NCBI GenBank assembly: GCA_022793655.1
Contig: JAAWDG010000013.1
Span: 128,230-192,229, forward strand
Origin: Clostridiales bacterium
GTDB taxonomy: Bacteria > Bacillota > Clostridia > Oscillospirales > CAG-272
DNA: 64,000 bases
Direction of reading: 5' to 3'
The first letter of the stretch is position 1. The number at the start of each line of letters is the position of its first letter. The notes beneath the pieces were generated by a model, which saw nothing but the letters and a program-made list of their open reading frames with translations, made no database searches and was not told where the DNA came from. This document shows positions 2,733 to 37,813 of the stretch, piece after piece. The position numbers and the translations under genes were made by a program.

Positions 2733-3023
2733 GTAACAAAGCAATAATCACAGATGATCTTCGGGAAATGAAGGGATGGTGATCACGTGACGGGGTTTCA
2801 TCTGCCCACTTGTGTGGGCGTTGCTCGGCGGGTGCGCTGAAAAAACACTACTCTGCTGTAGGCAGATAAACCGCATTAACTGCTATAAACAGGAAGTCCG
2901 CAAACTACAAAGGCAAACTGAACGAAATTTCATTAACAAGATCGATATTAATCGCTTTGAGAAACGATTGGTATCGGTCTTTTTTGTTTCCGGGGCGATT
3001 GATCCGGTTATCAATCAAAGGAG

Positions 3024-4016
3024 ATGATGACTATCAAGACCCCTGTAAGCTGGCTGGGCAACAAGACATCCATCCTGCATATCCTTTATTCGCTATTTCC
3101 AGTAAGCTACGGACGGTATATCGAACCCTTCGGCGGCTCTGGAGCTGTCCTCTTAGGCAAGCCTGTCCCCGACAAGTTTGAAATATACAACGATTACAAT
3201 GCAAACCTTGTCAATCTTTTTCGCTGTATGCGGGACAGACCGCTGGAATTTATTCGAGAACTCGGCTTCCTAAATCTGAACGCCAGGGACGATTTTGTGG
3301 CGCTGAAGCATTTTTTTAAGCATGAAGAATTTACCGACGAATTTCTGCACCAGGAACTGGAACTGACAAGTATTCTGCTCCCTGAACTGCAGGCTGCCGA
3401 GTTGTGTGAACTGTATCGAAAGGCGAAAGAAGATCACGACCTGCGTCGGGCTGTCATGTTCTTAAAGCTTATTCGATACAGCTATTCCAGTGGCGGTAAA
3501 TCCTATGTCTGCCAGCCCTTTAATGTGGCGAATTTGTTCTCGCTCATTGAGCAGTTTGGAAAACGAATGGCAAATGTTGTTGTTGAAAATCAGGATTTTG
3601 AGATGCTGATCCGGCACTACGACCGCAGCGATGCTTTCATCTACTGCGATCCCCCATATTTCAAGAGTGAGTACGTGTACAAGTGCGGCTTCACATGGGA
3701 TGATCATTTGCGGCTGAAACATGTTCTTGGGGAAGCTAAAGGCAAATGGCTTGTATCCTACAACGACTGTGCGGAAATCCGTGAATTGTATCGGAACTAT
3801 AACCAATTCGGATTTACACGTGTTCACAACATGGTACAAAAATATGAAGTGGGCAAGGAGTTTCCCGAGCTGCTCATCGGCAACTACGACTTTTATGAAC
3901 GAGAACAGCAGAATGCAAGGCAGCTCACAGTTTTTGAAATGGAAAATGAGCTGAGTCCCAAAGAAACTGAAAAAATCTTAAAGGAGTGTATCATTCAATG
4001 CAAGATAAGAAGATAA
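3024..4016 (+). CDS. Orphan N6-adenine DNA methyltransferase (Dam / D12 class)
   Basis: SAM-binding motif EPFGGSGAV and catalytic DPPY (IYCDPPYFKSEY). RBS aaaggag. No restriction-endonuclease partner is adjacent. Confidence 0.85.
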   Translation: MMTIKTPVSWLGNKTSILHILYSLFPVSYGRYIEPFGGSGAVLLGKPVPDKFEIYNDYNANLVNLFRCMRDRPLEFIRELGFLNLNARDDFVALKHFFKHEEFTDEFLHQELELTSILLPELQAAELCELYRKAKEDHDLRRAVMFLKLIRYSYSSGGKSYVCQPFNVANLFSLIEQFGKRMANVVVENQDFEMLIRHYDRSDAFIYCDPPYFKSEYVYKCGFTWDDHLRLKHVLGEAKGKWLVSYNDCAEIRELYRNYNQFGFTRVHNMVQKYEVGKEFPELLIGNYDFYEREQQNARQLTVFEMENELSPKETEKILKECIIQCKIRR

Positions 4017-6463: not shown

Positions 6464-6540
6464 ACAAAAAATAAAACTTGCCTAAAGGCACATCGTAAAT
6501 CGATGTGCCTTTTATTTATGTAAAAAGGAGATATGCTCAA

Positions 6541-9500
6541 ATGAATTTTAAAAGAAGCATAGCGGTAGTATTGACTTTTATATTGTGCCTTTCTACCTTG
6601 ACCGGATTGGGGAAAAACGCCTCTGCCGCCGGAGAAGAAGATCAGGCATTATTGATTGGTTTTCCGCGCGCGGGAGATGCAAATCCTGAAAATTGGGTAC
6701 ACGGAGAACTCCATTTCATGAATGGCTGGGTATCGCCGGAAGTGCGGAAGTATTCTGTTTACACCATCGGCTCCTATACCGGAAATATTTGCTATTGTAT
6801 TGAGCCGGGTACTCCGCTTAGCCCCGGCGATTCATTCACACAAAATAAGGACGAGTCCTTTTGGGACAACTATCCGTCCGATTACAATCATACCATTCGC
6901 GCGGATATGATTAAGATTTTTATAGGAAGAATTCTGCAGTATGGCTACACAGGCACTGTATCACCATACTGGGTATCGCAGAATCCCGAAGAAGCAAATT
7001 GCATAGCGGAAGTGATTGCGACACAACTGCTCATATGGGAAACGATTGTGGGAGAACGGGACAGCGATTTCAACCATGTCAGTTCAGGTGAGTATGATGC
7101 GGTGTTGGACTGTATCTCGGATGCCCATCCTCTCCGTAACAAAATTTTAGGCTACTATAACAGCATTGCGGCAAGCGTACAGAGCCATGGCAAAGTCCCT
7201 TCTTTTTGTACGAGAAGTACGGGAGCGAAAGTTTACGAGTTGGAGTGGAATGGCAGCGAATACACAACAACACTGACTGATTCCAACAATGTACTCGGCA
7301 ATTATACCTTTTCTGCTGACAATGCCAATGTGAAGTGCAGTGTCAAAGGAAATCAATTGACGCTGACTGCGTCCTCCGCACCGAGTGCTCCGATAACCAT
7401 AACAGCAAGCAAGACCACTGGATCAAGAAAAGGATTGATTGTATGGAGCGATGGCATTTATAAACCCAGCGAAGGGTTACAAGACCTTGTCAGTTATACC
7501 CAGTCAATCACTGACCCAGTATCAGGCTTTATAAAGGTCAAAGTTTCCTATGGTTCTGCTAAAATTGTAAAAACTTCTGAGGACGGTAAGGTAGATGGTG
7601 TGTCGTTCCATATACAAGGCAATGGTATAGATACAATCGTGCAAACGAAAAACGGCGGACAGATTCAGATCGACAACCTCACGCCTGGCGTCTATACCGT
7701 GACCGAGCTGACAGAAGAAAAATACGCGCCACAGGAAGTACGCCGTGTTACTGTAGTCAGCGGTCAGACGGCAACTGTTACTTTCAGCAATGTGTTAAAG
7801 CGCGGTGATCTCGCGGTTACCAAGACCAGCGAGGACGGACTCAGCGAGGGTGCAAAATTCCACCTCTACGGAACCTCGCTCTCCGGATTGGCTGTAGACG
7901 AGTACGCCGTTGCCGACAGCACAGGAGTTGCGACCTTTGAAGATGTCCTCATCGGAACTGGATATACTCTCGAAGAAATGGATACGGCGATCCGCTATGT
8001 CGTGCCCGAAAAGCAGGCCGCAGCCATTGAGTGGAATAAGGTGACGAACAAGTCCTTTGATAATATCCTCAAGAAATGGCAGATCACCGTCACCAAAAGT
8101 GATTCCGAAACCGGAACTGCACAAGGCAACGTTTCTCTCGGCGGGGCTGTCTATGGCATTTTTAAGGGCGATCAGCTCGTGGACACCTATACCACCGATA
8201 CAAATGGCCAGTTCATCACCAAGTTCTATATCTGTGATTCTGATTGGAGTTTGCGCGAACTGTCAGCCTCCGAAGGATATCTCGTAACTTCCGGCAGCGA
8301 GCATATCGGCGCTGAACCGAAACTCTATACAGTAGAGTACAACAGCACGGCGCTGGATGTTCTCGAAACCGTTCAAAAAGGCAAGATAGCTGTCATTAAG
8401 CACCGCGATGACGGCGAAACGCAGATTGAAACGCCCGAAGCAGGTGCTGAATTTGAGGTGTTCCTCAAATCCTCCGGCAGTTATGACGCCGCAAAGGATT
8501 CCGAGCGAGATATTCTCGTCTGTGATAAATTTGGATTTGCTGAAAGCAAAGATTTGCCGTACGGCATCTATACCGTCAAACAAACAAAAGGCTGGGAGGG
8601 CAACGAGCTGATGGAACCCTTCGATGTGTTTGTAAAAGAGGACGGCGAAATCTATCGCTACCTGATCAACAATGCCACCTTTGAAGCGCTCATTGAAATC
8701 GTGAAAAAGGATATCGAGACAGGCAAGGTGATTCCTGCATCCGGTATAGGCTTTAAGGTGCGAAACACCGATACTGGAAAGTATATCGTGCAGCATATCA
8801 ACTATCCAACGCCGGTGGATATTGACATCTACTATACCGATAGAAGCGGGAAACTTATGATGCCTGAAGCGCTCCCTTATGGAAATTACGAAATCATTGA
8901 GCAGAATACCTGTTACGGATATGTTCTTGACCCAAGTCCCGTCCCCTTCACAGTAGACGGCAGCAAGACAACTATCACAGTAGAAAAATACAATATCGCG
9001 CAAAAAGGCACAATTACCGTAACCAAGACTGGCGAAGTGTTCGCCTCTGTGGTCGAATCGGGCGAAATCTATCAGCCTGTGTATTCGGTGCAGGGGCTTG
9101 CAGGTGCAGTTTATGAAGTAAGTGCCGCTGAAGATGTTTCTACCTTAGACGGCACACTCCGATACAGCAAAGGCGAAGTTGTGGCGATGATTGAGACTGA
9201 CAGCACAGGGATAGCGACCACAGAACCACTGTATCTCGGAAAATTCGATGTGCGGGAAATCAAAGCGCCTGATGGCATGCTTGTCAGCGATGAAGTGCAT
9301 TCTGTCGAACTGACCTACTCCGGACAGGAGGTTGAAATCACAGAAACGGAGACAGCATTCTATAACGAGCGCCAGCGTGTGCAGATTGATCTTGCTAAGA
9401 TCATGGTGCAGGATGAAAAATTTGAGATTGGCATGAATGGCGAAATCCTCTCTGTGCAGTTCGGACTGTTCGCTGCCGAGGATTTGACCGCCGCAGACGG

Positions 9501-10908
9501 CAGCGTGATCCCGGCAGACGGACTACTGGAGATTGTATCCTGTGATGAGAACGGTAAAGCGGCCTTTATCACGGATGTTCCCGTAGGTGCCAAGTTGTAT
9601 GTGAAAGAGGTTGCAACCAACGAACAATATATGCTCTCAGCTGAAAAATATCCTGTAACCTTCGAGTATGCGGGCCAGAATGTGGCAGCGGTCAACATTA
9701 CTGTAAATAAGGGCGAAGCTATTGAAAACGACATCATCTACGGCAATATTAAGGGACTAAAAATTGACCGTGAAACAGAGGAAACCATCGCAGGAGCTTT
9801 GTTCGGATTATTCCGTGCGGATGTGACCGAGTTTACAGAGGAAAATGCGATCCTTACGACAGAATCCAGTGTGGACGGCGTCTTCATCTTTGAGAATGTG
9901 CCCTTCAGCAATTGGATCGTCAAGGAATTGGTCCCCGCAGAAGGATTCCTGTCCAATGAGGAACTATATCCTGTAACTGTTTCTGAGAACGAGGAAATCA
10001 TTGAAATTACTGTAGTCAACGACCGCATTCCCGAAATTGGTACGACTGCTACAGTAGACGGCGAAAAGGAAATTTGTGCTACTGAAATCTTTACGCTTAC
10101 CGACACTGTGACATATAAGCATCTGATTCCTGGCAAGGAATATGTGCTGAAGGGCATCCTTATGGATAAAACTTCAAGCAAACCGCTTGTGATCGACGGG
10201 CAGGAAATCCATTCTATAGCAGTCTTCACTCCCGAAGCACCCACAGGAAAGGTAATCGTTAAATTCACCTTTGATTCCAAGTATATAAAGGCTGATACCG
10301 ACATTGTGGTGTTTGAACGCCTGTATAGAGACGGCAAAGAACTTGCCGTTCATGCGGATATTGAGGATGAAAGTCAGACCGTCAAAGTGAAAGTTCCCAA
10401 AATCGGAACACAGGCAACGGCAGAAAGAGAAAAGGAAATCACCACAGACGGCAGAGTGGTCATTGAGGACATTGTGTCTTACTTCAACCTAACCCCCGAC
10501 AAAGAATATATGCTAAAAGGGATACTCATGGACAAGACAGTCAATCAACCTTTGCTGATAAATGGTGAGGAAATTCGAAGCTCTTTCACCTTTAAACCAC
10601 AGGCATCCTCTGGCGAAATTACAGTATCCTTTGTATTTGATGCTGGCAGTCTTATGAAGGAAACAGAAATCGTTGTTTTTGAAACACTCTATCGGGAAGG
10701 CGTAGAGGTCGCTTTTCATACGGATATCGAGGATCAGGGACAAACAGTGAAAATCATACCACCAACGCCGCCTGTTTCTGACAATCCACAAACCGGTGTT
10801 AACAGCAATCTTGGTTTATGGCTTGGACTTGGCGCTGTTGCTGCCGGCGGACTGATCGCCTTGTGTGCTATATATTGGAAACAAAAAAAGGATGACGATG
10901 ACAAATGA
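6541..10908 (+). CDS. Cell-wall-anchored adhesin with a thioester domain, Cna-B-type repeats and two VaFE ester-bond repeats (1455 aa)
   Basis: Signal peptide. Thioester-domain motifs NICYCIEPG (Cys, ~6790) and TQLLIWE (7021-7041). Repeated SpaA/Cna-B-like modules (KTSEDG...GV/AxFxL/I). Two ~120-aa repeats end IVVFERLY and IVVFETLY. The C-terminal NPQTG (10783-10797) is followed by a TM helix and the basic tail KQKKDDDDK. Confidence 0.85.
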   Translation: MNFKRSIAVVLTFILCLSTLTGLGKNASAAGEEDQALLIGFPRAGDANPENWVHGELHFMNGWVSPEVRKYSVYTIGSYTGNICYCIEPGTPLSPGDSFTQNKDESFWDNYPSDYNHTIRADMIKIFIGRILQYGYTGTVSPYWVSQNPEEANCIAEVIATQLLIWETIVGERDSDFNHVSSGEYDAVLDCISDAHPLRNKILGYYNSIAASVQSHGKVPSFCTRSTGAKVYELEWNGSEYTTTLTDSNNVLGNYTFSADNANVKCSVKGNQLTLTASSAPSAPITITASKTTGSRKGLIVWSDGIYKPSEGLQDLVSYTQSITDPVSGFIKVKVSYGSAKIVKTSEDGKVDGVSFHIQGNGIDTIVQTKNGGQIQIDNLTPGVYTVTELTEEKYAPQEVRRVTVVSGQTATVTFSNVLKRGDLAVTKTSEDGLSEGAKFHLYGTSLSGLAVDEYAVADSTGVATFEDVLIGTGYTLEEMDTAIRYVVPEKQAAAIEWNKVTNKSFDNILKKWQITVTKSDSETGTAQGNVSLGGAVYGIFKGDQLVDTYTTDTNGQFITKFYICDSDWSLRELSASEGYLVTSGSEHIGAEPKLYTVEYNSTALDVLETVQKGKIAVIKHRDDGETQIETPEAGAEFEVFLKSSGSYDAAKDSERDILVCDKFGFAESKDLPYGIYTVKQTKGWEGNELMEPFDVFVKEDGEIYRYLINNATFEALIEIVKKDIETGKVIPASGIGFKVRNTDTGKYIVQHINYPTPVDIDIYYTDRSGKLMMPEALPYGNYEIIEQNTCYGYVLDPSPVPFTVDGSKTTITVEKYNIAQKGTITVTKTGEVFASVVESGEIYQPVYSVQGLAGAVYEVSAAEDVSTLDGTLRYSKGEVVAMIETDSTGIATTEPLYLGKFDVREIKAPDGMLVSDEVHSVELTYSGQEVEITETETAFYNERQRVQIDLAKIMVQDEKFEIGMNGEILSVQFGLFAAEDLTAADGSVIPADGLLEIVSCDENGKAAFITDVPVGAKLYVKEVATNEQYMLSAEKYPVTFEYAGQNVAAVNITVNKGEAIENDIIYGNIKGLKIDRETEETIAGALFGLFRADVTEFTEENAILTTESSVDGVFIFENVPFSNWIVKELVPAEGFLSNEELYPVTVSENEEIIEITVVNDRIPEIGTTATVDGEKEICATEIFTLTDTVTYKHLIPGKEYVLKGILMDKTSSKPLVIDGQEIHSIAVFTPEAPTGKVIVKFTFDSKYIKADTDIVVFERLYRDGKELAVHADIEDESQTVKVKVPKIGTQATAEREKEITTDGRVVIEDIVSYFNLTPDKEYMLKGILMDKTVNQPLLINGEEIRSSFTFKPQASSGEITVSFVFDAGSLMKETEIVVFETLYREGVEVAFHTDIEDQGQTVKIIPPTPPVSDNPQTGVNSNLGLWLGLGAVAAGGLIALCAIYWKQKKDDDDK

Positions 10909-21918: not shown

Positions 21919-21932
21919 GAAACATTTGTTCG
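21919..21932. promoter_or_regulatory. Candidate LexA (SOS) operator upstream of dinB
   Basis: AAACATTTGTTC (21920-21931) has the reverse complement GAACAAATGTTT, which fits the Firmicutes GAAC-N4-GTT(C/T) SOS box. It lies between a TATAAT hexamer (21907-21912) and the dinB RBS. Confidence 0.5.
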
Positions 21933-21952
21933 TTGCTATTTTGGAGAGGTTT

Positions 21953-23194
21953 ATGGAAAGAATCATACTGCATTCGGATTTGAATAATTTTTATGCCTCG
22001 GTAGAGTGTTTATATAATCCGTCCCTGCGAGGAAAGCCTATTGCTGTGTCCGGCAATCCCGAAGAGCGTCACGGGATTGTACTTGCGAAAAATTACGCCG
22101 CCAAAGCCTGCGGTGTTGCTACGGGAAATCCGCTGTGGATGGCAAAACAGAAATGTCCGGATATTGTTTTTGTGCCTCCGCACTACGATCTGTATATGAA
22201 ATACTCGCAGATTGCGCGTGAGATTTACAGCGAATACACCGATCAGGTGGAGTCATACGGACTTGACGAGTGCTGGATGGATGTAACCGGCAGCACGCAT
22301 CTGTTCGGCGACGGAAAGGCGATCGCGGACAAACTGCGTGAGAGAATCAAATTTGAGCTTGGCGTGACCGCATCGGTCGGAGTCAGCTACAATAAAATTT
22401 TTGCCAAGCTCGGCAGCGATATGAAAAAGCCGGACGCGACCACCGTTATTACAAGCGACCGCTTCCGTGAAATTGTATGGCCGCTGTCTGTAAATGATCT
22501 TCTCTATGTAGGACGGGCAACGCATAACAAATTGAAGCGATACGGCATTCAGACGATCGGCGATCTTGCACAGTCGGATCAGAATTTTCTGAAAAGTCTG
22601 CTCGGGCAAAACGGAGTCATGCTGTGGATGTTCGCAAACGGGCTGGATACTTCTCCGGTATCTAATATCGACGCGAAATCCTTAATTAAATCCATCGGAA
22701 ACAGCACGACCGCACCGCGCGATCTTGTTACCGATGAAGATATTCGTATTACACTTATGGTATTGTGCGAGAGCGTATCCGCACGTATGCGGGAGTACGG
22801 CTTTGTCTGCAACACCTTACAAATCGGCGTGCGTGACAACGAGCTGCACAGCTACGAAAGACAGGGTAAGCTGTACTATCCCAACCGCACAGCAAAAGCA
22901 TTGCTTGATAAATCGTTTGAATTGTACAAGCGTCATCACACATCGGGTAAGCCTGTGCGTTCGCTCAGTGTCCGTGCCTGCAATCTGTCGCTGAATGAGA
23001 ATGAACAACTGTCACTGCTTCCGGAGATTTCGAACATTCAAAGGCAGGAGACACTGGAGAGTACCGTGGATCATATCCGAAAACAATTCGGCCACTTCTC
23101 CATTCAGAATGGATTGCTGCTCTCCGATAGACAGTTATCTTCCCTCAATCCTAAAGACGACCATGTGATTCACCCAGAGTCTTTTTTAAAATGA
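21953..23194 (+). CDS. dinB: Y-family DNA polymerase IV (DinB/ImpB type)
   Basis: ILHSDLNNFYASVE, GLDECWMDVTG and SVGVSYNKIFAKLGSDMKKP are canonical Y-family motifs. RBS ggagag. Confidence 0.9.
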   Translation: MERIILHSDLNNFYASVECLYNPSLRGKPIAVSGNPEERHGIVLAKNYAAKACGVATGNPLWMAKQKCPDIVFVPPHYDLYMKYSQIAREIYSEYTDQVESYGLDECWMDVTGSTHLFGDGKAIADKLRERIKFELGVTASVGVSYNKIFAKLGSDMKKPDATTVITSDRFREIVWPLSVNDLLYVGRATHNKLKRYGIQTIGDLAQSDQNFLKSLLGQNGVMLWMFANGLDTSPVSNIDAKSLIKSIGNSTTAPRDLVTDEDIRITLMVLCESVSARMREYGFVCNTLQIGVRDNELHSYERQGKLYYPNRTAKALLDKSFELYKRHHTSGKPVRSLSVRACNLSLNENEQLSLLPEISNIQRQETLESTVDHIRKQFGHFSIQNGLLLSDRQLSSLNPKDDHVIHPESFLK

Positions 23195-25178: not shown

Positions 25179-25219
25179 CCCCTGATTAAGTTTAAACTTA
25201 ATCAGGGGATTTTTTATTT
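25179..25219 (+). terminator. Intrinsic terminator (30-bp perfect palindrome plus T-run)
   Basis: CCCCTGATTAAGTTTAAACTTAATCAGGGG (25179-25208) followed by ATTTTTTATTT. Confidence 0.8.
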
Positions 25220-28893: not shown

Positions 28894-28930
28894 AAAGAAT
28901 CCGCTTTTTACGGATTCTTTATTTTTTTTC
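28894..28930 (+). terminator. Intrinsic terminator
   Basis: AAAGAATCCG / CGGATTCTTT stem, 7-nt loop, then a T8 run. Confidence 0.75.
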
Positions 28931-29882: not shown

Positions 29883-30143
29883 ATGTTAAAATGTTTAAAG
29901 CGACTTGATGATGTTGGTAGATTAGTTCTGCCGAAAGAACTACGGAAGGCATTAGAGCTTACTCCTAAAGATTGGATAACAATTAAGCTGTCTGGTGAGG
30001 AGATGGTTATAAAAAAATTAGTGGATTCATGCGCATTTTGTGAAAGCAAGCAAAAACTAATAAAAATAAAAGAAAAGTTTGTTTGTGAGCACTGTCGTAA
30101 AGATTTGTGTAGAATTTATGATGAATTAAAACAAAAAATATAA
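29883..30143 (+). CDS. AbrB/SpoVT-like protein with a C-terminal CxxC...CxxC zinc ribbon
   Basis: KRLDDVGRLVLPKELRKALEL (AbrB-fold motif) plus CAFCE...CEHC. Confidence 0.6.
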   Translation: MLKCLKRLDDVGRLVLPKELRKALELTPKDWITIKLSGEEMVIKKLVDSCAFCESKQKLIKIKEKFVCEHCRKDLCRIYDELKQKI

Positions 30144-30934: not shown

Positions 30935-30978
30935 AGCGCCCGATTTGCTTTTTGCAAATCGGGCGCTATTTGTTTTTT
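30935..30978 (+). terminator. Intrinsic terminator T1
   Basis: 14-bp GC-rich stem AGCGCCCGATTTGC / GCAAATCGGGCGCT, followed by ATTTGTTTTTT. Confidence 0.75.
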
Positions 30979-31372: not shown

Positions 31373-31488
31373 ATGATGCGCAAACTATAAAAATTTTTAC
31401 TACAAAACCGGTAGGCATCGGTTGTCGTGACCCGCCTTCAATCAATCGTTTTGATTATTTTCAAATTCATTGATTGGAGGATAGCAGC

Positions 31489-31944
31489 ATGAATGCTGAT
31501 AATAAGAAAATATGGGTAGATGGGAAATCTGTTGAAGTAACAGATGAAGTTTATGATGCCTATATGAAAGGTGATCGAAAAATACGCTACTTTGAAATAG
31601 ATTTAAAAACAGAGAGGATGCACATCAAAGGATGTGATAGAATCGCTGTTGTTCCAAGCCGTGAGGATTCATTGGACAGGCTAATGGACGATCAAGCCTA
31701 CCAGTTTTCTGATGACAGCGAAGGAGTGGAAGAATTTGTACTCCGCAAAGTTTCTTATGAAACACTCTACGAAGCATTGGACAAGCTGTCAAAGGATGAG
31801 CAGACTTTTGTCTTTGCAATGTTCTTTGAGAATAAAACGGAAAGGGAATTGGCTGCACTTATGGGTATTACACAGCCGGCGATCCACAAGAGAAAAATAA
31901 AAATACTTGATAAGCTAAAAAATTTTTTAAAAAATAGTATTTAG
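31489..31944 (+). CDS. Sigma-70 region-4-type (Tn916 Orf7-like) small sigma/HTH factor
   Basis: C-terminal LSKDEQTFVFAMFFENKTERELAALMGITQPAIHKRKIKILDKLK. RBS GGAGG. Confidence 0.7.
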   Translation: MNADNKKIWVDGKSVEVTDEVYDAYMKGDRKIRYFEIDLKTERMHIKGCDRIAVVPSREDSLDRLMDDQAYQFSDDSEGVEEFVLRKVSYETLYEALDKLSKDEQTFVFAMFFENKTERELAALMGITQPAIHKRKIKILDKLKNFLKNSI

Positions 31945-31953
31945 CGGTTATCA

Positions 31954-31997
31954 GCCCCTTCACTCAACGGCAAATAGAGTGAAGGGGCATTCTTATT
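31954..31997 (+). terminator. Intrinsic terminator after the sigma-like gene
   Basis: 12-bp stem GCCCCTTCACTC / GAGTGAAGGGGC, followed by ATTCTTATT. Confidence 0.65.
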
Positions 31998-32446
31998 GCC
32001 TCTGGTGATCATTGAAAACTGAATAGCACAGCGCATTTTTTACCTTCCTTCTGCTGTCGGGAAACCGGCAAGCCACAAGAGATCATCTCAGACGGTGCGG
32101 GGCATCCGTACCGAAGGTCATGACAGGCAGGAGGGACAATGATACTTGCGTCCAGTCACAGGTCGAGCGTTGAAGCAGAGTGTAATGCTAACCGAGCAAA
32201 TATGCGAAAGCATATTTGACCGCAAAGCTATGCTTTGCGTGCCGTCGCAACCAATGAGGGCGCCTCGGAGAGTTCCTCGGAGGGGTGAGATTCCCATGAG
32301 GTCTGAAAGGCTTTGCCTTTCATCTGCACAGACCGGAAAATGCGTTCCCGTGTATCCGAGGGGCGGCGAGGATCGAATATCGGTAAAGAACAAAACGATT
32401 GATACGAATACAAGGCGGCTGTTTCCAGAATGCAAACAACCGCCTT
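31998..32446 (+). ncRNA. Candidate large structured non-coding RNA / leader upstream of mazF (class unknown)
   Basis: Stacked hairpins: 32053-32073 (GAAA loop), 32091-32119, 32166-32189, 32197-32218 (9 bp, GAAA loop), 32221-32239, 32300-32334 and 32412-32446 (13 bp). More GC-rich than its flanks. The ORFs crossing it lack an RBS and look non-protein-like. Confidence 0.4.
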
Positions 32447-32467
32447 TTACTTATGGAGGAAAATATC

Positions 32468-32821
32468 ATGGAAAAAATCAAAAGAGGGCAAATCTACTAC
32501 GCCGAATTATCTCCAATAATCGGCAGTGAGCAAGGCGGCAACCGTCCCGTTGTTATCCTACAAAACGATAAAGGAAATCTCTACAGTAATACCACGATTG
32601 TAGCGGCAATCACAAGTGAGCTGGATAAAACCCATCTGCCCACGCATATCATTTTCACAGCGAACTGTATGGAAAAAACCTCTATGGTTTTGCTTGAGCA
32701 GATTAGGACGCTGGACAAATCTCGTCTTAACAATTGTATTGGGATAATGGATGATAGAACAATGCAGCGAATTGACCACGCAGTTGCAATCAGCTTGGGA
32801 CTTGAACATTTGGGGGATTAA
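32468..32821 (+). CDS. mazF: MazF/EndoA-type endoribonuclease toxin
   Basis: KRGQIYYAELSPIIGSEQGGNRPVVILQND...LPTHI...[14 protein letters not shown] closely resembles Bacillus EndoA/MazF. RBS GGAGGA. No antitoxin ORF lies upstream. Confidence 0.9.
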   Translation: MEKIKRGQIYYAELSPIIGSEQGGNRPVVILQNDKGNLYSNTTIVAAITSELDKTHLPTHIIFTANCMEKTSMVLLEQIRTLDKSRLNNCIGIMDDRTMQRIDHAVAISLGLEHLGD

Positions 32822-32823
32822 AA

Positions 32824-33162
32824 ATGAATGAAAAAAAGGGGTGGATGTATATCCGAAAAACACATCAACCGGTTATAAGTCTTGACGAACAAAAAGTGCA
32901 GCTCAGAAAATGGAGTGAATATCAGGGATACAAGATTGTTGGAGAAACGGCTATACTTGGCGGCAACGAAAAATCAAAGAATACTATAGTGAATATCCTC
33001 CACCAAGAGCCTCCAGCAAACGGTGCAACATATCTTATTACACCGTCTTTTTCTCACCTTTCCCGCAGCTTTTTCCAAACAGTTGAAATACTGAAAGAGC
33101 TGAATGAATACGGAATAGGCATTATTACGGCAAACAATCCAGTTGCTCCTAATCTAAAATAG
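32824..33162 (+). CDS. Stand-alone, probably inactive resolvase catalytic-domain protein (112 aa)
   Basis: WMYIRKTHQPVISLDEQ...YKIVGE...YLITPSFSHLSRSFFQTVEILKELNEYGIGIIT aligns to the serine-recombinase N-domain pattern (YxRVSTxxQ..SLxxQ...DRLSR...). The nucleophile Ser is Thr, and there is no DNA-binding domain. Starts 3 nt after the mazF stop. Confidence 0.6.
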   Translation: MNEKKGWMYIRKTHQPVISLDEQKVQLRKWSEYQGYKIVGETAILGGNEKSKNTIVNILHQEPPANGATYLITPSFSHLSRSFFQTVEILKELNEYGIGIITANNPVAPNLK

Positions 33163-33251
33163 AAAATATACAGTAGCCAGAAATAGAATTAGAAGATAAC
33201 GAAACAAATTGCGCTAATGCATCACAGTTTATAATATGAGGTGAAGAAACA

Positions 33252-33404
33252 ATGAATCAGACCGATCTAAATAACGCATCTTTTGCTTACAGCGTGAGCA
33301 TGCTTCGAATGCTGCTCAGAATGAAGCTTATTACCAAAGAAGAATACGATCAAATCGCGCATATCAGCGCAGAGTTTTATGGCGTAGAAGTTTATTGTGT
33401 CTGA
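33252..33404 (+). CDS. Possible 50-aa ORF
   Basis: ATG ORF MNQTDLNNASFAYSVSMLRMLLRMKLITKEEYDQIAHISAEFYGVEVYCV with a weak SD (gaggtgaag). Too short for the ORF track. Confidence 0.3.
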   Translation: MNQTDLNNASFAYSVSMLRMLLRMKLITKEEYDQIAHISAEFYGVEVYCV

Positions 33405-33542
33405 AGTGATAATTTTTCAGTTTAGCGCTGGATATATTTGTACTTCTGTGGTATTGTTAGTGCTACCCAAAGGGTAACACAGTTGCCGCAGAACAAGCGG
33501 TAATATAAAAGCAGGCAGCAAGCCTGCGGAAAGGAGAAAGAA

Positions 33543-35102
33543 ATGCAAATAACGGAAATTGCTGCTGAACGAAAGCAAAATACAAACGATATTCGCTTGG
33601 CAGCCTATTGCCGGGTATCAAGTGATTCCACCGACCAGCTCCACTCCTTTGCCACACAGATTCGGTACTACAAGGATTATGAAAAGAAGCATCCGCAGTA
33701 CAAGCTGATAGACATCTATGCAGATGAAGGGCTGACAGGCACGGATATAAAAAAGCGCGATGAGCAAAACCGATTGATCCGTGATTGCAAGAAAGGCAAA
33801 ATTGACCGCATCATCGTCAAATCTGTATCCCGCTTTGCCAGAAACACGCGGGAGCTTCTCGTCACACTGCGAATGCTGAAGGAAATCGGCGTGAGCGTGT
33901 ACTTCGAGGAACAAGGCATTGATACTGACAAAATCAATATGGAAATGATTGTAGCATTCCCCGGTATGGCGGCTCAACAAGAGTCGGAAACCATATCGGG
34001 GAATATGCGTTGGAGTTACCAGAAAAGGATAGGATCGGGCGAGTTTAATTGCACCTATCCGGCATATGGATTCAGCCTTGTAAAAGGAAAGCTGGAAATC
34101 AACGAATCGGAAGCGTATGTGGTGCGGAGAATATTTAATTTGTATCTTCAAGGAATTGGGATGCAACGGATTGCCAATCTGCTCAATGAAGAAAACATTC
34201 CCCGCAGAAAAGAAACGCAGAAATGGCACTGCTCAACTGTTAAATATGTTTTGAATAACGAGAGATACATGGGTGACGCTATTCTCCAAAAGAGTTATAC
34301 AACTGAAACCCTGCCGTTTCGCAAGCGCAGGAACAACGGCGAATTTCCAAAGGTCTATGTGGAAAACAGTAATCCGCCTATCGTTAGTAGAGAGGTATAT
34401 CAAACGGCACAGAAGCTGCAAGAAGAACGGGCTGTTCACAGGTGCAGTCGACATTCTACCTATCCGCTGTCAAAGATGCTTCGTTGTCCCGACTGCGGCA
34501 GAGCTTTCCGACGACAATTTGTAGCCGGCAAAGCTTATTGGCTATGCGCAGGCAAAGCGGCAGGATCAACTGACTGTAAAAATAGGCGCGTGAAAGAGGA
34601 TAAAGTTTATGAATCCTTTAATCAGATGGTATGGAAACTAAAGGCTTATCGAGACCAGCTTCTCACCCCCCTGATTCGTCAGATGGAATCTATGCAGAGC
34701 CAATCCAGTCATTTACAGGAACCAATCCGAGCCATTGATAAGGAAATCGCTGATCTTAGCGCACAGAACCTTGTAGTTGCAAGATTTCATACTAAAGGTA
34801 TACTGAATGCCGCAGACTTCTCCGCACAAGCAGATGCGTTAAGCAGTAAAATCCGTGAGCTTCGCGCAAAACGCCATAAATTGCTTGCTATGGATGAAAC
34901 GAACGAACTGATCAATACCTTGTGCGACCTGAACAAAAAAATACGAGAGTATGAACCTACTGGCGGCTTTGATGAGGAACTATTTGAGCAGATCGTTGTT
35001 TCCGTCGTCGTGAACGATAACGCCTCGCTCACCTTTAAGTTGCTCGGCGGTGTAGAATTAACTGAAGAAATCCCATTGAAAGGAAGGTGTAAATCCACAT
35101 GA
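33543..35102 (+). CDS. Large serine recombinase 1 (519 aa)
   Basis: Catalytic motif AAYCRVSSDSTDQ, resolvase domain, recombinase domain, zinc ribbon (CPDCG...C..GK...C), and a coiled-coil tail. Confidence 0.9.
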   Translation: MQITEIAAERKQNTNDIRLAAYCRVSSDSTDQLHSFATQIRYYKDYEKKHPQYKLIDIYADEGLTGTDIKKRDEQNRLIRDCKKGKIDRIIVKSVSRFARNTRELLVTLRMLKEIGVSVYFEEQGIDTDKINMEMIVAFPGMAAQQESETISGNMRWSYQKRIGSGEFNCTYPAYGFSLVKGKLEINESEAYVVRRIFNLYLQGIGMQRIANLLNEENIPRRKETQKWHCSTVKYVLNNERYMGDAILQKSYTTETLPFRKRRNNGEFPKVYVENSNPPIVSREVYQTAQKLQEERAVHRCSRHSTYPLSKMLRCPDCGRAFRRQFVAGKAYWLCAGKAAGSTDCKNRRVKEDKVYESFNQMVWKLKAYRDQLLTPLIRQMESMQSQSSHLQEPIRAIDKEIADLSAQNLVVARFHTKGILNAADFSAQADALSSKIRELRAKRHKLLAMDETNELINTLCDLNKKIREYEPTGGFDEELFEQIVVSVVVNDNASLTFKLLGGVELTEEIPLKGRCKST

Positions 35103-35953
35103 AGAACCGTAATATCCCATTCGGATATCAGTATCAAAACGGAGTTGTAACGCTGCATCCGATAGAAGAACAGGTACTCCGGCAGATTGCCAGAGATTAC
35201 CTGGCCGGTCAGTCGCTACTGAAAATTGCAGAGGGTTTGAATGCTAATCAGGTTGAATATCAGCCCGGTATTATTGGCTGGAACAAAGCGAGGATCATGC
35301 GTCTGCTTGAAGATAAGCGCTATCTTGGTGACGGCGGATATCCCGCCATTATCGATGCGGATACTTTTGCTTCGATTCAAATTAAGAAGTACAACCGAAA
35401 CAAATTGAAAAATATAGACAGGCAATCAGACATTTTCCAAATTACCGTCCCTGTCCTGTGTCCCGACTGTGGCACAGAGATGCACCGCAGACACGACAGT
35501 CGATGCAAATGCACCGAGCGGTGGTTTTGTCGCAATAAGGATTGCAAAACCCTGATTAAACTATCAGACCACGATCTGCTCTCACAGATCACAGCAATTC
35601 TCAATCAGCTCGTCGTTCATCCCGAACGGATAAAAGGCGATAAATTGCAGGAATTGGCTCCAACCACTGAACAGAGAAGGCTTGACAATGAAATCGGCAG
35701 GATGATAGATACCAAAGTGCACGAGAAAGAAACACTACAAAAGAAGATGTTAGAGATGGTTTCCCTCAAATACAAATTGATTCCGTCAACTGTCGGAACT
35801 GCATACAGATTAAAAGCGGACTTCGAGCAATCGGGTCCGCTTTCTGTATTCTCAGCTGAACTTTTTGGAAATACAGTAAACGCCATTTATCTAAACAGGG
35901 ATAGCACTATTGAACTTAAACTGCTGAACGGTCAGCGAATCGGAAAGGAGTAA
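35099..35953 (+). CDS. Recombinase-domain/zinc-ribbon protein lacking the catalytic resolvase domain (284 aa)
   Basis: Starts directly with the recombinase-domain pattern IPFGYQYQNGVVTLHPIEEQVLRQIARDYLAGQS...WNKARIMRLLEDKRYLGDG, followed by CPDCG...C zinc-ribbon cysteines. No YxRVS motif. ATGA overlap with the previous gene. Confidence 0.75.
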   Translation: MKNRNIPFGYQYQNGVVTLHPIEEQVLRQIARDYLAGQSLLKIAEGLNANQVEYQPGIIGWNKARIMRLLEDKRYLGDGGYPAIIDADTFASIQIKKYNRNKLKNIDRQSDIFQITVPVLCPDCGTEMHRRHDSRCKCTERWFCRNKDCKTLIKLSDHDLLSQITAILNQLVVHPERIKGDKLQELAPTTEQRRLDNEIGRMIDTKVHEKETLQKKMLEMVSLKYKLIPSTVGTAYRLKADFEQSGPLSVFSAELFGNTVNAIYLNRDSTIELKLLNGQRIGKE

Positions 35954-35957
35954 AAGT

Positions 35958-37595
35958 ATGTCAGAAACAACAGTACAACCACCGAGGGTAGTTCGGGTAA
36001 TTCCTGCAACTATTGATGTGGCAAAGGAAATAAAGGAAGCCTACCGTCAGATTCGGGTAGCCGCCTACTGCCGAGTATCTACTAATCAGGAAGAACAACT
36101 CAATAGCTACGAAGTGCAGAAAAACTACTACGCCGAGAAAATCAATAGCGAGCCGAAATGGACACTGGTGGATATCTTTGCCGATAAGGGAATCACTGGC
36201 ACCAGCGTCAAGAAGCGGGATGAATTCAACCGCATGATTCGAATGTGCAAGCGTGGTAAAATCGATATGATTATCACCAAATCCATCAGCCGTTTTGCAA
36301 GAAACACAGTAGACTGCCTTACTTATGTGCGAAAACTAAAGGATATGAATGTGGATGTCTTTTTTGAAGAACAGGGCATTCACAGCACACAGCCTGGCGC
36401 TGAATTCTATATTACTATTTACGGATGCATCGCACAAAGCGAATCAGAGAACATAAGCGCTAATGTCAAATGGGGCAAAGCACAGAGCGCTAAGGAAGGT
36501 AACGTATCATTTCACTACAAAAACTTCCTTGGCTACCGCAAGGGCGCAGACGGCAAACCGGAAATTGTTCCCGAAGAAGCGGAGATCATTCGCACTATTT
36601 ACAAACGCTTCCTTGCGGGAGACAGCTTTGGAAGTATTATAGCGTATTTGGAGGAACGCCGCATCCTGTCGCCAAGCGGAAAAGAGAAATGGCAGTATTC
36701 CACCATCCAATCAATTCTCTCAAATGAACGCTATAAAGGTGACGTTATTATAAACAAGACTTATATAGTAGACTGCATCAGCAAGAAAGTGAAGGTCAAC
36801 AATGGCGAACGGACTAAATACTATGTCAAGAATAATCATCCCGCCATTATCGATGCTGGCACATTCGGCAGAGTTCAGGAAGAATTGGCAAGACGATCCG
36901 GCAAAAGAAAAGTCAAGATGGTCGGCACGAAAACCGAACAAGGAAAATACTCCGGTAAATATGCGTTAACTGAACTGCTGGTCTGCGGAGAGTGCGGAAC
37001 ACCCTATCGCCGATGCACATGGACGGTCAAAGGACAAAAGAAAATTGTGTGGCGTTGTATCAACCGGTTGGACTTCGGCAAGAAATACTGTCATACATCC
37101 CCGACCATAGAAGAAAGCGTCCTGCATAGCGCCATCATGACCGCAATCATGGAACAAGCACAACAGAACGTCGAAGTATTAAAAATGCTTAAACTGCACA
37201 TTGGCATGGGAATCAAAGCAGATGATACAGAAGACAAGAGCCTTGATATGCAAATCCGTATAGCAGAGATTGACGCTGAATTCAAGCAAATGCTTCAAGC
37301 AATTTCTTCCGAAAATTTAGAAACCTACGATGAAACAAAAATGACAGAGCTAATGTACGAAAAGCAAAGCCTGCAACAGCAGCTTTCGCAGATCGCAGAC
37401 AGACAACAAAAGCGAGAGAATGCAAAATCCCGATTAGCCGAAATCGTCACCATCCTTGACGGATTGAAAAATCACCCGATGGATTACGATGATACCCTCG
37501 TCCGCCAAATACTCGAATGCGTGGTAGTCGAGAACAAAGAACGAATTAAAGTAGTATTCGTCGGCGGTCTTAAAGCGGAACAGGAACTTCAATAA
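35958..37595 (+). CDS. Large serine recombinase 2 (545 aa)
   Basis: AAYCRVSTNQEEQ catalytic motif, recombinase domain, CGECGTPYRRC...WRC zinc ribbon, and a coiled coil. Confidence 0.9.
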   Translation: MSETTVQPPRVVRVIPATIDVAKEIKEAYRQIRVAAYCRVSTNQEEQLNSYEVQKNYYAEKINSEPKWTLVDIFADKGITGTSVKKRDEFNRMIRMCKRGKIDMIITKSISRFARNTVDCLTYVRKLKDMNVDVFFEEQGIHSTQPGAEFYITIYGCIAQSESENISANVKWGKAQSAKEGNVSFHYKNFLGYRKGADGKPEIVPEEAEIIRTIYKRFLAGDSFGSIIAYLEERRILSPSGKEKWQYSTIQSILSNERYKGDVIINKTYIVDCISKKVKVNNGERTKYYVKNNHPAIIDAGTFGRVQEELARRSGKRKVKMVGTKTEQGKYSGKYALTELLVCGECGTPYRRCTWTVKGQKKIVWRCINRLDFGKKYCHTSPTIEESVLHSAIMTAIMEQAQQNVEVLKMLKLHIGMGIKADDTEDKSLDMQIRIAEIDAEFKQMLQAISSENLETYDETKMTELMYEKQSLQQQLSQIADRQQKRENAKSRLAEIVTILDGLKNHPMDYDDTLVRQILECVVVENKERIKVVFVGGLKAEQELQ

Positions 37596-37813
37596 TACCA
37601 AGATTCAAACCCCTCTGTAAAAACGCCTAAAAACGCCATCGCAATCTGAACCCCTGTGGTTTGGACTGGGTGGTGTTTCACTTTATAACTCCAGTATTTA
37701 AGCGGCTTTTCAAGGTCGTTTTTCTTTTTAATCATTTGGACTGATAAAGAAGAAAAATGTGAATTTTGAAATAAGATCATCTAAAACGAATGAATCCGAA
37801 CTCGTCAGTCCAT

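Follow-up and report, generated by a model that had tools for sequence, protein, structure and literature searches.

What is the densely structured stretch that separates a gene for a sigma-like regulator from a mazF toxin gene in an integrative and conjugative element (ICE) of a Clostridiales bacterium? The stretch occupies positions 31998-32446 of a 64,000-nt piece of contig JAAWDG010000013.1 (assembly GCA_022793655.1), which was analyzed at its full length and is called the window here. An earlier note on this DNA, written from the letters alone, had taken the stretch for a large structured non-coding RNA in leader position that fits no known class of RNA. We find that it is a genuine non-coding RNA of the pemK family (RF02913), and sequence comparison indicates that this family is the conserved core of canT, the antiterminator RNA of Tn916. 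By analogy, the leader is probably a canT-type antiterminator that licenses read-through into mazF, the serine recombinase genes, and beyond.

When the whole window was scanned with cmscan at the Rfam gathering thresholds, a single match was returned: the pemK RNA at 32136-32299 on the + strand, with 61.2 bits against a gathering score of 34.8. In a permissive scan of the region, this match had an E-value of 1.6e-10 and covered model positions 1-61 of 61. Apart from pemK RNA, no family reached its gathering score in the leader in the permissive scan, and no riboswitch family matched the leader at E-values up to 10. The single-stranded 5' stretch of the model, AUAAUGAUACUU, has its counterpart in ACAAUGAUACUU at 32136-47, which agrees with the consensus at 11 of 12 positions. 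In the Rfam alignment, about 103 nt count as inserted sequence within the loop of hairpin P1, the first one. This insertion is the largest seen, with match lengths of 81-138 nt in the relatives compared to 164 nt in the window. The claim that the RNA fits no known class had been offered subject to a confident Rfam match, and the match at 61.2 bits is one. The leader is a member of a known RNA family and, therefore, no new RNA class.

The pemK RNA motif was described as a candidate cis-regulatory RNA (Weinberg et al. 2017) and has been in Rfam since 2017, where its class is Cis-reg and no further function is given. The family owes its name to the pemK/mazF gene that follows the core on the same strand. 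The locus in the window is itself an ordinary member of this catalogued family, sharing the full-length model match, the helices P1-P3, the 5' stretch, and the pemK/mazF gene downstream. It differs in that the 61 positions of the Rfam model are embedded here in a covarying closed domain of ~320 nt, followed by a 3' hairpin and a terminator. A mazF neighborhood is not universal in the family, as Tn916-type members lack mazF in the flanks that were fetched.

The leader is richer in GC than its surroundings, as had been noticed before, with 0.52-0.54 over 32000-32400 against 0.37-0.45 in the flanking DNA. The RNA 31998-32468 has a minimum free energy (MFE) of -164.3 kcal/mol, compared to a mean of -141.9 ± 6.1 for dinucleotide shuffles (z = -3.65), and 0 of 100 shuffles folded as well. 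This fold, together with the conserved covarying helices described below, bears out the part of the earlier description that called the stretch a large structured non-coding RNA in leader position. The other way to read the region is as a degenerate or frameshifted protein-coding gene, because two open reading frames (ORFs) of more than 100 codons cross it, at 32146..32529 (+) and 32118..32435 (-). Both had been listed before as unlikely genes, and this judgment stands. Among the homologues, the substitution rates per codon position are 0.20/0.21/0.25 for the + strand ORF and 0.20/0.20/0.22 for the - strand ORF, with no third-position excess in either. In all 25 homologues, indel runs that are not multiples of three make up half or more of those in the crossing ORFs, and a Pfam search of both ORFs gave no match. 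Conservation in the leader follows base pairing instead. Coding by these ORFs is effectively excluded, and we give almost no credence to a decayed gene.

Relatives of the leader came from three sources: 41 loci of MazF homologues from genome contigs, one unverified "phage" record, and 37 metagenome stretches matching a DNA pattern across the junction just 5' of the motif. Viral contigs scanned with a junction pattern gave 0 matches. A pemK match was found just upstream of the gene in 19 of the first 20 MazF-homologue loci, with further matches in additional loci, and profile searches found the whole intergenic region, beyond the motif alone, to be homologous in about 50 loci. After many near-identical metagenome loci had been reduced, 26 non-redundant leaders, mostly from metagenome-assembled genomes of gut Clostridia, were aligned with MAFFT. 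This aligner is not structure-aware, and some of the "broken" cells in helix H12 and in the terminator are register errors of the alignment. The features of the RNA in the window are as follows.

32012-32025 (+): conserved 5' box TTGAAAACTGAATA, near-invariant in the alignment; the same box is found in Tn916 (locus L080, 2166-2179).
32030-32041 (+): 5' strand of H1, which closes the ~320-nt domain; pairs with 32335-32346, by covariation.
32048-32133 (+): 5' multi-helix junction domain closed by H2 (32048-54/32127-33), from RNAalifold and pair counts.
32055-70 (+): H3, GAAA hairpin in the junction domain, covarying.
32072-74/32116-18 (+): H4 in the junction domain, from pair counts in the alignment.
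32079-81/32087-89 (+): H5 in the junction domain, with a variable loop, from pair counts in the alignment.
32093-100/32106-113 (+): H6 in the junction domain, from pair counts in the alignment.
32136-32299 (+): pemK RNA core, RF02913, by cmscan (61.2 bits).
32136-47 (+): conserved single-stranded ACAAUGAUACUU, first part of the pemK core.
32148-58/32255-63 (+): P1 of the pemK core, covarying.
32159-32254 (+): lineage-specific P1-loop insertion with hairpins 32166-89, 32197-218, and 32221-39, from the Rfam alignment and the match lengths of relatives.
32264-70/32276-82 (+): P2 of the pemK core, covarying.
32283-85/32293-95 (+): P3 of the pemK core, covarying.
32300-32334 (+): H10, hairpin with a covarying base and a variable tip.
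32335-32346 (+): 3' strand of H1; pairs with 32030-32041.
32354-32385 (+): H12, hairpin (stem 32356-59/32380-83) with a conserved loop of ~20 nt, GGGGnnnCGUGGnUnAAAUA; compensatory changes.
32399-32413 (+): conserved single-stranded box CAAAACGAUUGAUAC, near-invariant in the alignment.
32412-32448 (+): intrinsic-terminator hairpin (core 32414-24/32434-44) followed by UUUU; compensatory changes in the close group.

RNAalifold predicted 67 pairs from the alignment, and for 39 of them at least one sequence has both bases changed with the pairing preserved. The pairing was then compared with 500 shuffles and with slid partners. Across all 78 pairs of the 13 helices (terminator included), 93.8% of cells are paired, compared to 80.2 ± 0.5% in the shuffles (reached by 0 of 500) and 41-47% with slid partners, and the covariation score is 0.447 against 0.201 shuffled and at most 0.119 slid. 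Both-side changes occur in 45 of these pairs. A covariation check on homologues had been proposed in the earlier note, and the helices do covary. The result does not depend on the part already modeled in Rfam: for the 49 pairs outside the Rfam model, 94.0% of cells are paired against 81.7% shuffled (0 of 500) and 36-41% slid, with a covariation of 0.433 against 0.208 shuffled and both-side changes in 28 pairs. Related sequences can beat shuffles without any structure; the results with slid partners and the variety of pair types observed argue that the excess of pairing is not mere relatedness.

The long-range helix H1 taken alone gives 95.3% paired cells, compared to 81.4% shuffled (0 of 500) and 36-60% slid, with a covariation of 0.418 against 0.176. 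Six of its 11 pairs show compensatory changes, with swaps such as GC:12/AU:9, CG:14/UA:10, and UA:13/GC:5/AU:4. Within the domain that it closes, H2-H6 are paired in 94-99% of cells, with 13 pairs changed on both sides, and P1, P2, and P3 in 98.3%, 99.4%, and 100% of cells, with both-side changes in 5, 5, and 1 pairs. The base of H10 covaries as well (UA:14, CG:9, GC:2 and CG:16, UA:8). Downstream of the domain, all six pairs of H12 have compensatory changes, yet only 82% of its cells are paired, which is partly a matter of alignment register; the terminator hairpin has six pairs with compensatory changes in the close group. The 61-position Rfam model, judged from these sequences, is only the core of a ~320-nt domain closed by H1. 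A scan for stacked covarying columns, as expected of pseudoknots or tertiary pairs, found only 3-bp stacks with one covarying pair, which is the noise level.

These helices agree in part with the local hairpins that had been proposed by eye. The GAAA hairpin at 32053-73 is H3 (32055-60/32065-70), which covaries in the 26 homologues; the helix at 32300-34 is H10; and the helix at 32412-46 is the terminator hairpin with its UUUU, which does adjoin the ribosome binding site (RBS) of mazF, the ATG at 32468 being 22 nt past the hairpin. At 32091-119, an 8-bp stem (H6) is correct and its GAC/GTC extension is not, since 32116-18 pairs with 32072-74 (H4). The three remaining hairpins are present in the window, but with a narrow distribution: 32166-89 belongs to the lineage-specific P1-loop insertion and is restricted to the window and its nearest relatives, 32197-218 lies in the same insertion and is found only in the window and one relative (L034), and 32221-39, which has compensatory changes, occurs in three sequences only. 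H1, H2, H5, the P1-P3 core, and H12 were not among the helices proposed before.

One relative carries a rearranged copy of this architecture. In a rumen Clostridiales contig (L012, 1928-2024), a 55-nt tandem duplication, GAUGACAGGCAGAGGGGACAAUGAUACUU...CACGC, comprises the 3' strand of H2 and the 5' half of the pemK core.

A function for this family is suggested by Tn916. canT is an RNA encoded between orf8 and xis of Tn916 (Wirachman and Grossman 2024; PMC11658703). It acts in cis and in an orientation-specific manner to give processive read-through of terminators of Tn916 as well as heterologous ones, is active at 341-452 nt, and is required for expression of the conjugation genes after excision (PMC11658703). 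It is not complemented in trans, and a canT mutant regained expression once terminator T1 was inactivated, which its authors took as evidence of read-through and not of a strong promoter (PMC11658703). The same authors reported that secondary-structure prediction failed to explain their mutants, and they mention neither Rfam nor pemK (PMC11658703). In our literature search, no paper was found that joins the pemK RNA with canT or Tn916.

The copy of Tn916 on pCF10 (L080) was used for the comparison; its orf7 sigma gene lies at 1391-1813, orf8 at 1810-2040, xis at 2501-2704, and int at 2786-4003. RF02913 matches L080 at 2323-2423 (55.0 bits, E 6.4e-9), inside the canT fragment. An nhmmer profile built from 20 leaders matches the same stretch at E 9e-16 and also matches the 5' box, TTGTTCTTTGAAAACTGAATA, at L080 2155-2179. 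The published canT coordinates, which are distances from the orf8 stop (PMC11658703), were converted by means of the orf8 stop at L080 2040; the conversion was checked, because L080 2323-2325 reads ATA as expected. The converted sites are as follows.

L080 2166-2617: active 452-bp canT fragment, which begins at the conserved 5' box.
L080 2269-2430: canT(delta162), which removes the whole pemK motif.
L080 2323-2325: canT(S3), ATA to TGC, at RF02913 model positions 1-3.
L080 2395-2397: site of the classical Tn5 insertion (codon 41 of "orf5"), within the P2 loop.

The motif coincides with the loss-of-function sites of canT. Folding of the Tn916 fragment points in the same direction, as both the MFE and the centroid fold hold a long-range helix, formed by AGUAAUCGAAUA with a partner after an H10-like hairpin, which is the equivalent of H1 with a different sequence. 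The window and canT, thus, have in common the pemK core (55 bits), the 5' box, a similar size, a long-range closing helix, and the position and orientation between a sigma-like regulator and recombination genes. They differ in several respects. In the window, the RNA follows the sigma-like gene with no orf8-like helix-turn-helix (HTH) gene in between, the sequence of the 5' domain is different, H12 and an intrinsic terminator are added before the first gene, this gene is mazF and not xis, and the recombinases are of the serine type. Antitermination would be carried over to the window copy by analogy.

Tn916 is not the only well-known element with this RNA. The pemK model matches a Tn5397-like tndX element (L082) at 68.9 bits, a Monoglobus element with TnpW and a serine recombinase (L083) at 60.1 bits, and the Tn1549-like vanB element of pMG2200 (L081) at 57.8 bits. 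In these three and in Tn916, the order is sigma gene, HTH gene, RNA, and recombination genes. No MazF homologue was found in any of the four elements within the fetched 1.5-2.5 kb on either side of the match, so the family is independent of MazF as far as these flanks reach. The sigma-like proteins next to the RNA share only ~22% identity over region 4, and the RNA is far better conserved; the protein in the window has a weak BLASTP likeness to Orf7 of Tn916 (E 1e-4) and to the Tn1549-like sigma protein (E 8e-6). The Tn5397-like element also has a match to RF03532 (SQ2397, "cis-regulator of HTH transcription factor"; 229.8 bits) at L082 319-548, in the orf9-orf7 intergenic region of this Tn916/Tn5397-like element. 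Since the window has no RF03532 match, the regulatory module upstream of its sigma-like gene differs.

The genes and signals that flank the RNA in the window are the following.

31474-31944 (+): small sigma-70 region-4 protein (Tn916 Orf7-like regulator); Pfam Sigma70_r4 26.3 bits, NCBIfam sigma70-ECF superfamily.
31954-31988 (+): terminator-like hairpin ending the sigma-like gene; from the sequence, with a hairpin at the same position in homologues.
32468-32821 (+): mazF/pemK toxin gene with RBS GGAGG at 32455-59; Pfam PemK_toxin 102.1 bits.
32824-37595 (+): recombination module with a 112-aa resolvase-N ORF, a 50-aa SHOCT ORF, and recombinases of 519, 284, and 545 aa; Pfam Resolvase, Recombinase, Zn_ribbon_recom, and SHOCT_2.

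With this layout, the leader RNA most likely gates the expression of the element's toxin, recombinase, and transfer genes, if canT is a guide. Transcription from the regulatory module would produce the leader RNA, and the nascent RNA would fold into the ~320-nt domain closed by 32030-41/32335-46, which contains the 5' multi-helix junction, the single-stranded AAUGAUACUU stretch, P1-P3, and H10. In analogy to canT, the folded RNA would remain with the transcribing polymerase and make it resistant to intrinsic terminators. The first terminator on its path would be the hairpin and U-tract at 32412-48 directly downstream, so that only a modified polymerase would reach mazF and the serine recombinase genes. 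After excision and circularization, the modified polymerase could cross the joint and pass the terminator-like sites in the transfer genes, as in Tn916. The genes of the element are co-directional, and further terminator-like hairpins with 9-14 bp stems followed by T-tracts stand on the + strand in or at the ends of its gene array: 6484-6512 and 25179-25208 in the transfer genes, 28894-28920, 30935-30967, and 37700-37721 after the recombinases. Strong + strand hairpins of this kind would be expected of an element that relies on processive antitermination. Antitermination, processivity, and cis action are what we infer for the window copy from canT. The suggestion in the earlier note of a checkpoint on read-through into the excision module comes close to this reading, which is the best supported: a canT-type antiterminator followed by an intrinsic terminator.

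Several points weigh against it. The homology with canT is secure only for the ~100-nt core and the 5' box. The sequences of the 5' domains differ, and the equivalence of H1 and H2 comes from complementarity within each sequence and not from a joint alignment. The triplet changed in canT(S3) is AUA in Tn916 and ACA in the window, and it varies in the alignment (ACA, AUA, AUU), although the stretch around it is conserved. H1 is absent from the MFE fold of the window sequence and was not the best duplex in an energy-only search of the window. Because energy-only folds do not recover it, H1 in the window is supported by covariation alone; the energy-only test recovers an H1-type helix at weak significance in Tn916, the Tn5397-like element, and the Monoglobus element, and not in the window or the Tn1549-like element. 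canT is dispensable for excision in Tn916 (PMC11658703), and no terminator comparable to 32412-48 was seen between canT and xis in L080. The hairpin at 31954-88 puts a terminator-like structure upstream of the RNA as well, and the promoter scans for the RNA found nothing. Finally, the strict linkage with MazF in the subfamily of the window is not explained by antitermination, and the support for the window copy is comparative.

The lack of a promoter also bears on a different kind of RNA, an independent trans-acting small RNA (sRNA) of ~430 nt that would run from a promoter at the 5' box to the terminator at 32412-48. The 5' box, TTGA(A/C)AAnnGAATA, lies directly 5' of the fold, is identical in Tn916, and contains a -35-like hexamer; the TTGACA-like sequence and the pair of hairpins, terminator-like upstream and terminator downstream, would suit such a transcript. 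Terminator and promoter calls are pattern matches only in this work. A -10 element is missing at 16-18 nt from the TTGACA-like box, consensus scans were at chance level, and the sequence at the proper distance covaries as helix H1. Also, canT of Tn916 does not complement in trans, and the T1 result was read as read-through (PMC11658703). We consider a free-standing sRNA very unlikely. The 5' box might serve in pausing or in the binding of a protein, perhaps the adjacent sigma region-4 protein.

The terminator at 32412-48 raises another possibility. It is peculiar to the MazF subfamily, in which a hairpin and T-tract stand ahead of the first gene in every member, and it could equally fit a local conditional attenuator. 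Such a fold would sense a ligand, a protein (the sigma-like protein or MazF), or an RNA and switch only the adjacent terminator, in a non-processive manner. The succession of a large conserved fold, an intrinsic terminator, and an RBS has the layout of an attenuator, the Cis-reg class in Rfam is compatible with one, and long conserved single-stranded stretches (AAUGAUACUU, the H12 loop, and CAAAACGAUUGAUAC) are possible binding sites. On the other hand, the alignment gave no conserved pairing that would compete with the terminator hairpin, the scan for additional covarying stacks was empty, no riboswitch family matched, and the homologous RNA of Tn916 acts on heterologous and distant terminators, unlike a local switch. 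We consider an attenuator an unlikely alternative to the canT-type antiterminator. A specific antiterminator pairing between AAAACGA (32400-06) and UCGUUU of the 5' strand of the terminator was considered and rejected, as two relatives (L051 and L052) alter the stem and leave the box unchanged.

The remaining alternatives concern MazF itself. In the subfamily, the order is sigma-like gene (usually), leader, MazF homologue, and recombination module. Every leader whose contig reaches far enough is followed within 0-600 nt by a MazF homologue, which is the first or second gene after the RNA throughout, and MazF homologues more distant from the protein of the window are mostly without the RNA. Upstream of the leader, a sigma-like gene was seen in roughly half of the MazF-derived loci. 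The mazF of the window had been described as lacking an antitoxin, and this holds for the usual upstream position. Farther away, at a distance of 2.3 kb upstream, there is an 86-aa ORF with the AbrB/SpoVT/MazE fold at 29883-30143 (+), whose PF04014 score of 25.5 bits only just exceeds the cut-off. Between this ORF and mazF lie a strong terminator and the gene of the sigma-like protein. The ORF was rejected as a conserved antitoxin, as it was not found within up to 3 kb upstream of mazF in related loci.

In ToxIN systems, a structured RNA is followed by an intrinsic terminator and the gene of an endoribonuclease toxin. The leader could, in the same manner, be an RNA antitoxin or decoy of type III kind: an abundant terminated leader would bind MazF, and the terminator would keep the RNA in excess over the toxin mRNA. 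The window has the ToxIN-like order, with the terminator between RNA and toxin gene, and the missing upstream antitoxin gene and the constant presence of MazF downstream would be accounted for. The likeness ends there. The window has no tandem repeat array as ToxI does: Tandem Repeats Finder (TRF) and a direct-repeat search over 31950-32480 found no tandem or direct repeats, the one exception being a trivial near-repeat of 12 nt (1.9 copies) located at the RBS and start codon. The toxin is PemK/MazF and not ToxN/AbiQ, an additional gene can separate the RNA from mazF, and no MazF was found in the fetched flanks of the Tn916, Tn1549-like, Tn5397-like, and Monoglobus elements that have this RNA. 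The idea in the earlier note of an RNA antitoxin or regulator of MazF is weakened by these MazF-less elements and by the lack of ToxI-like repeats, and we regard a type III-like antitoxin as improbable.

EndoA-type MazF cleaves at UACAU. A UACAU-type site that could serve as a decoy is not conserved in the leader across the aligned family. The spacer between terminator and RBS (32444-32452) reads UUUUACUUA in most members of the alignment and UAUACAUAA or UUUACAUA in others, and the latter contain UACAU.

An intermediate reading is that an antiterminator leader has a second job, in which the terminated ~430-nt RNA would neutralize MazF or be its preferred substrate, or MazF would cut the leader and end antitermination. 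Such a pairing of MazF and leader would explain why MazF is the first or second gene and why the terminator is unique to the subfamily, neither of which is explained by plain antitermination. If true, it would build a toxin-RNA pair into an antitermination switch, and arrest of donor growth would be coupled to how the element is being transcribed. We hold it to be a long shot nonetheless.

Genes that stand between the leader and mazF were found in two groups of relatives. In L019 (2555-2941), L020, and L021, a SpoVG-family gene (Pfam, 95.1 bits) lies between the pemK RNA and mazF, and the terminator-hairpin/RBS module is duplicated, with one copy ahead of each gene. In human-gut metagenome contigs (L044, L045, L059-L061, L064, L069, and others; for example, L059 5440-5874), a 144-aa ORF with no Pfam family takes this place; MazF was present behind the 144-aa ORF by tblastn in ~15 metagenome loci. 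On the contigs with the 144-aa ORF, the downstream module consists of three tyrosine-recombinase-like genes (~380, 585, and 500 aa) and not of serine recombinases. In the subfamily as a whole, most loci have a recombination module of the serine type, and some metagenome loci have the trio of tyrosine recombinases.

In the window, the 112-aa ORF at 32824-33162 (+) begins two bases after the mazF stop and holds a resolvase N-terminal domain only. In ~15 relatives, the gene directly after mazF is a SHOCT-like ORF of ~50 aa instead, so the resolvase ORF looks like a recent insertion or a recombinase remnant. The SHOCT ORF showed no similarity to the TnpW protein of the Monoglobus element. Genes for TrbL, a VirB4-like ATPase, a MobL relaxase, a coupling protein, and ArdA show the window as a whole to be an ICE. 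Among the cargo of the element is a surface protein of 1467 aa in which thioester (TED) and T-Q ester domains are combined with repeated SpaA domains (6505-10908, +), and the element also encodes an ImpB/MucB-type polymerase (21926-23194) and an ArdA/LPD28 protein (1200-2732).

Among other antitermination systems, conAn1/conAn2 of pLS20 includes a structured leader RNA of several hundred nucleotides that allows the polymerase to bypass terminators in a long operon; conAn2 sits at the head of the conjugation operon and needs the ConAn1 protein for its long-range action (PMC8191782). The likeness to the window is one of description only, namely a large leader RNA in a Gram-positive conjugative element, and it differs in that the gene upstream of the window RNA encodes a sigma-70 region-4 protein. 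The paper on conAn mentions neither Tn916 nor Rfam nor pemK (PMC8191782). The put RNA of phage HK022 and the EAR RNA of the Bacillus eps operon are RNA-only, cis-acting processive antiterminators (PMC11658703; PMC8191782) and are described as much smaller than conAn2 (PMC8191782). Set beside put and EAR, the window leader matches no Rfam family besides pemK at its gathering score.

Compared to the literature searched, what is new is the identification of the pemK motif as the canT core, the covariation-supported architecture of the full-length RNA, and the variant with MazF and a terminator. If the link with canT is true, the orphan pemK motif would gain an experimentally supported function, and canT would gain a covariation-based architecture (closing helix, 5' junction, single-stranded AAUGAUACUU, P1-P3, and H10) that predicts killing and rescuing mutations. 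The MazF subfamily would be a testable variant, with a toxin gene behind the RNA and the terminator. These results will probably be useful to specialists in conjugative elements and RNA-mediated antitermination. Antitermination by a pemK RNA would then be a general feature of Tn916-, Tn1549-, and Tn5397-type elements, which spread tetracycline and vancomycin resistance.

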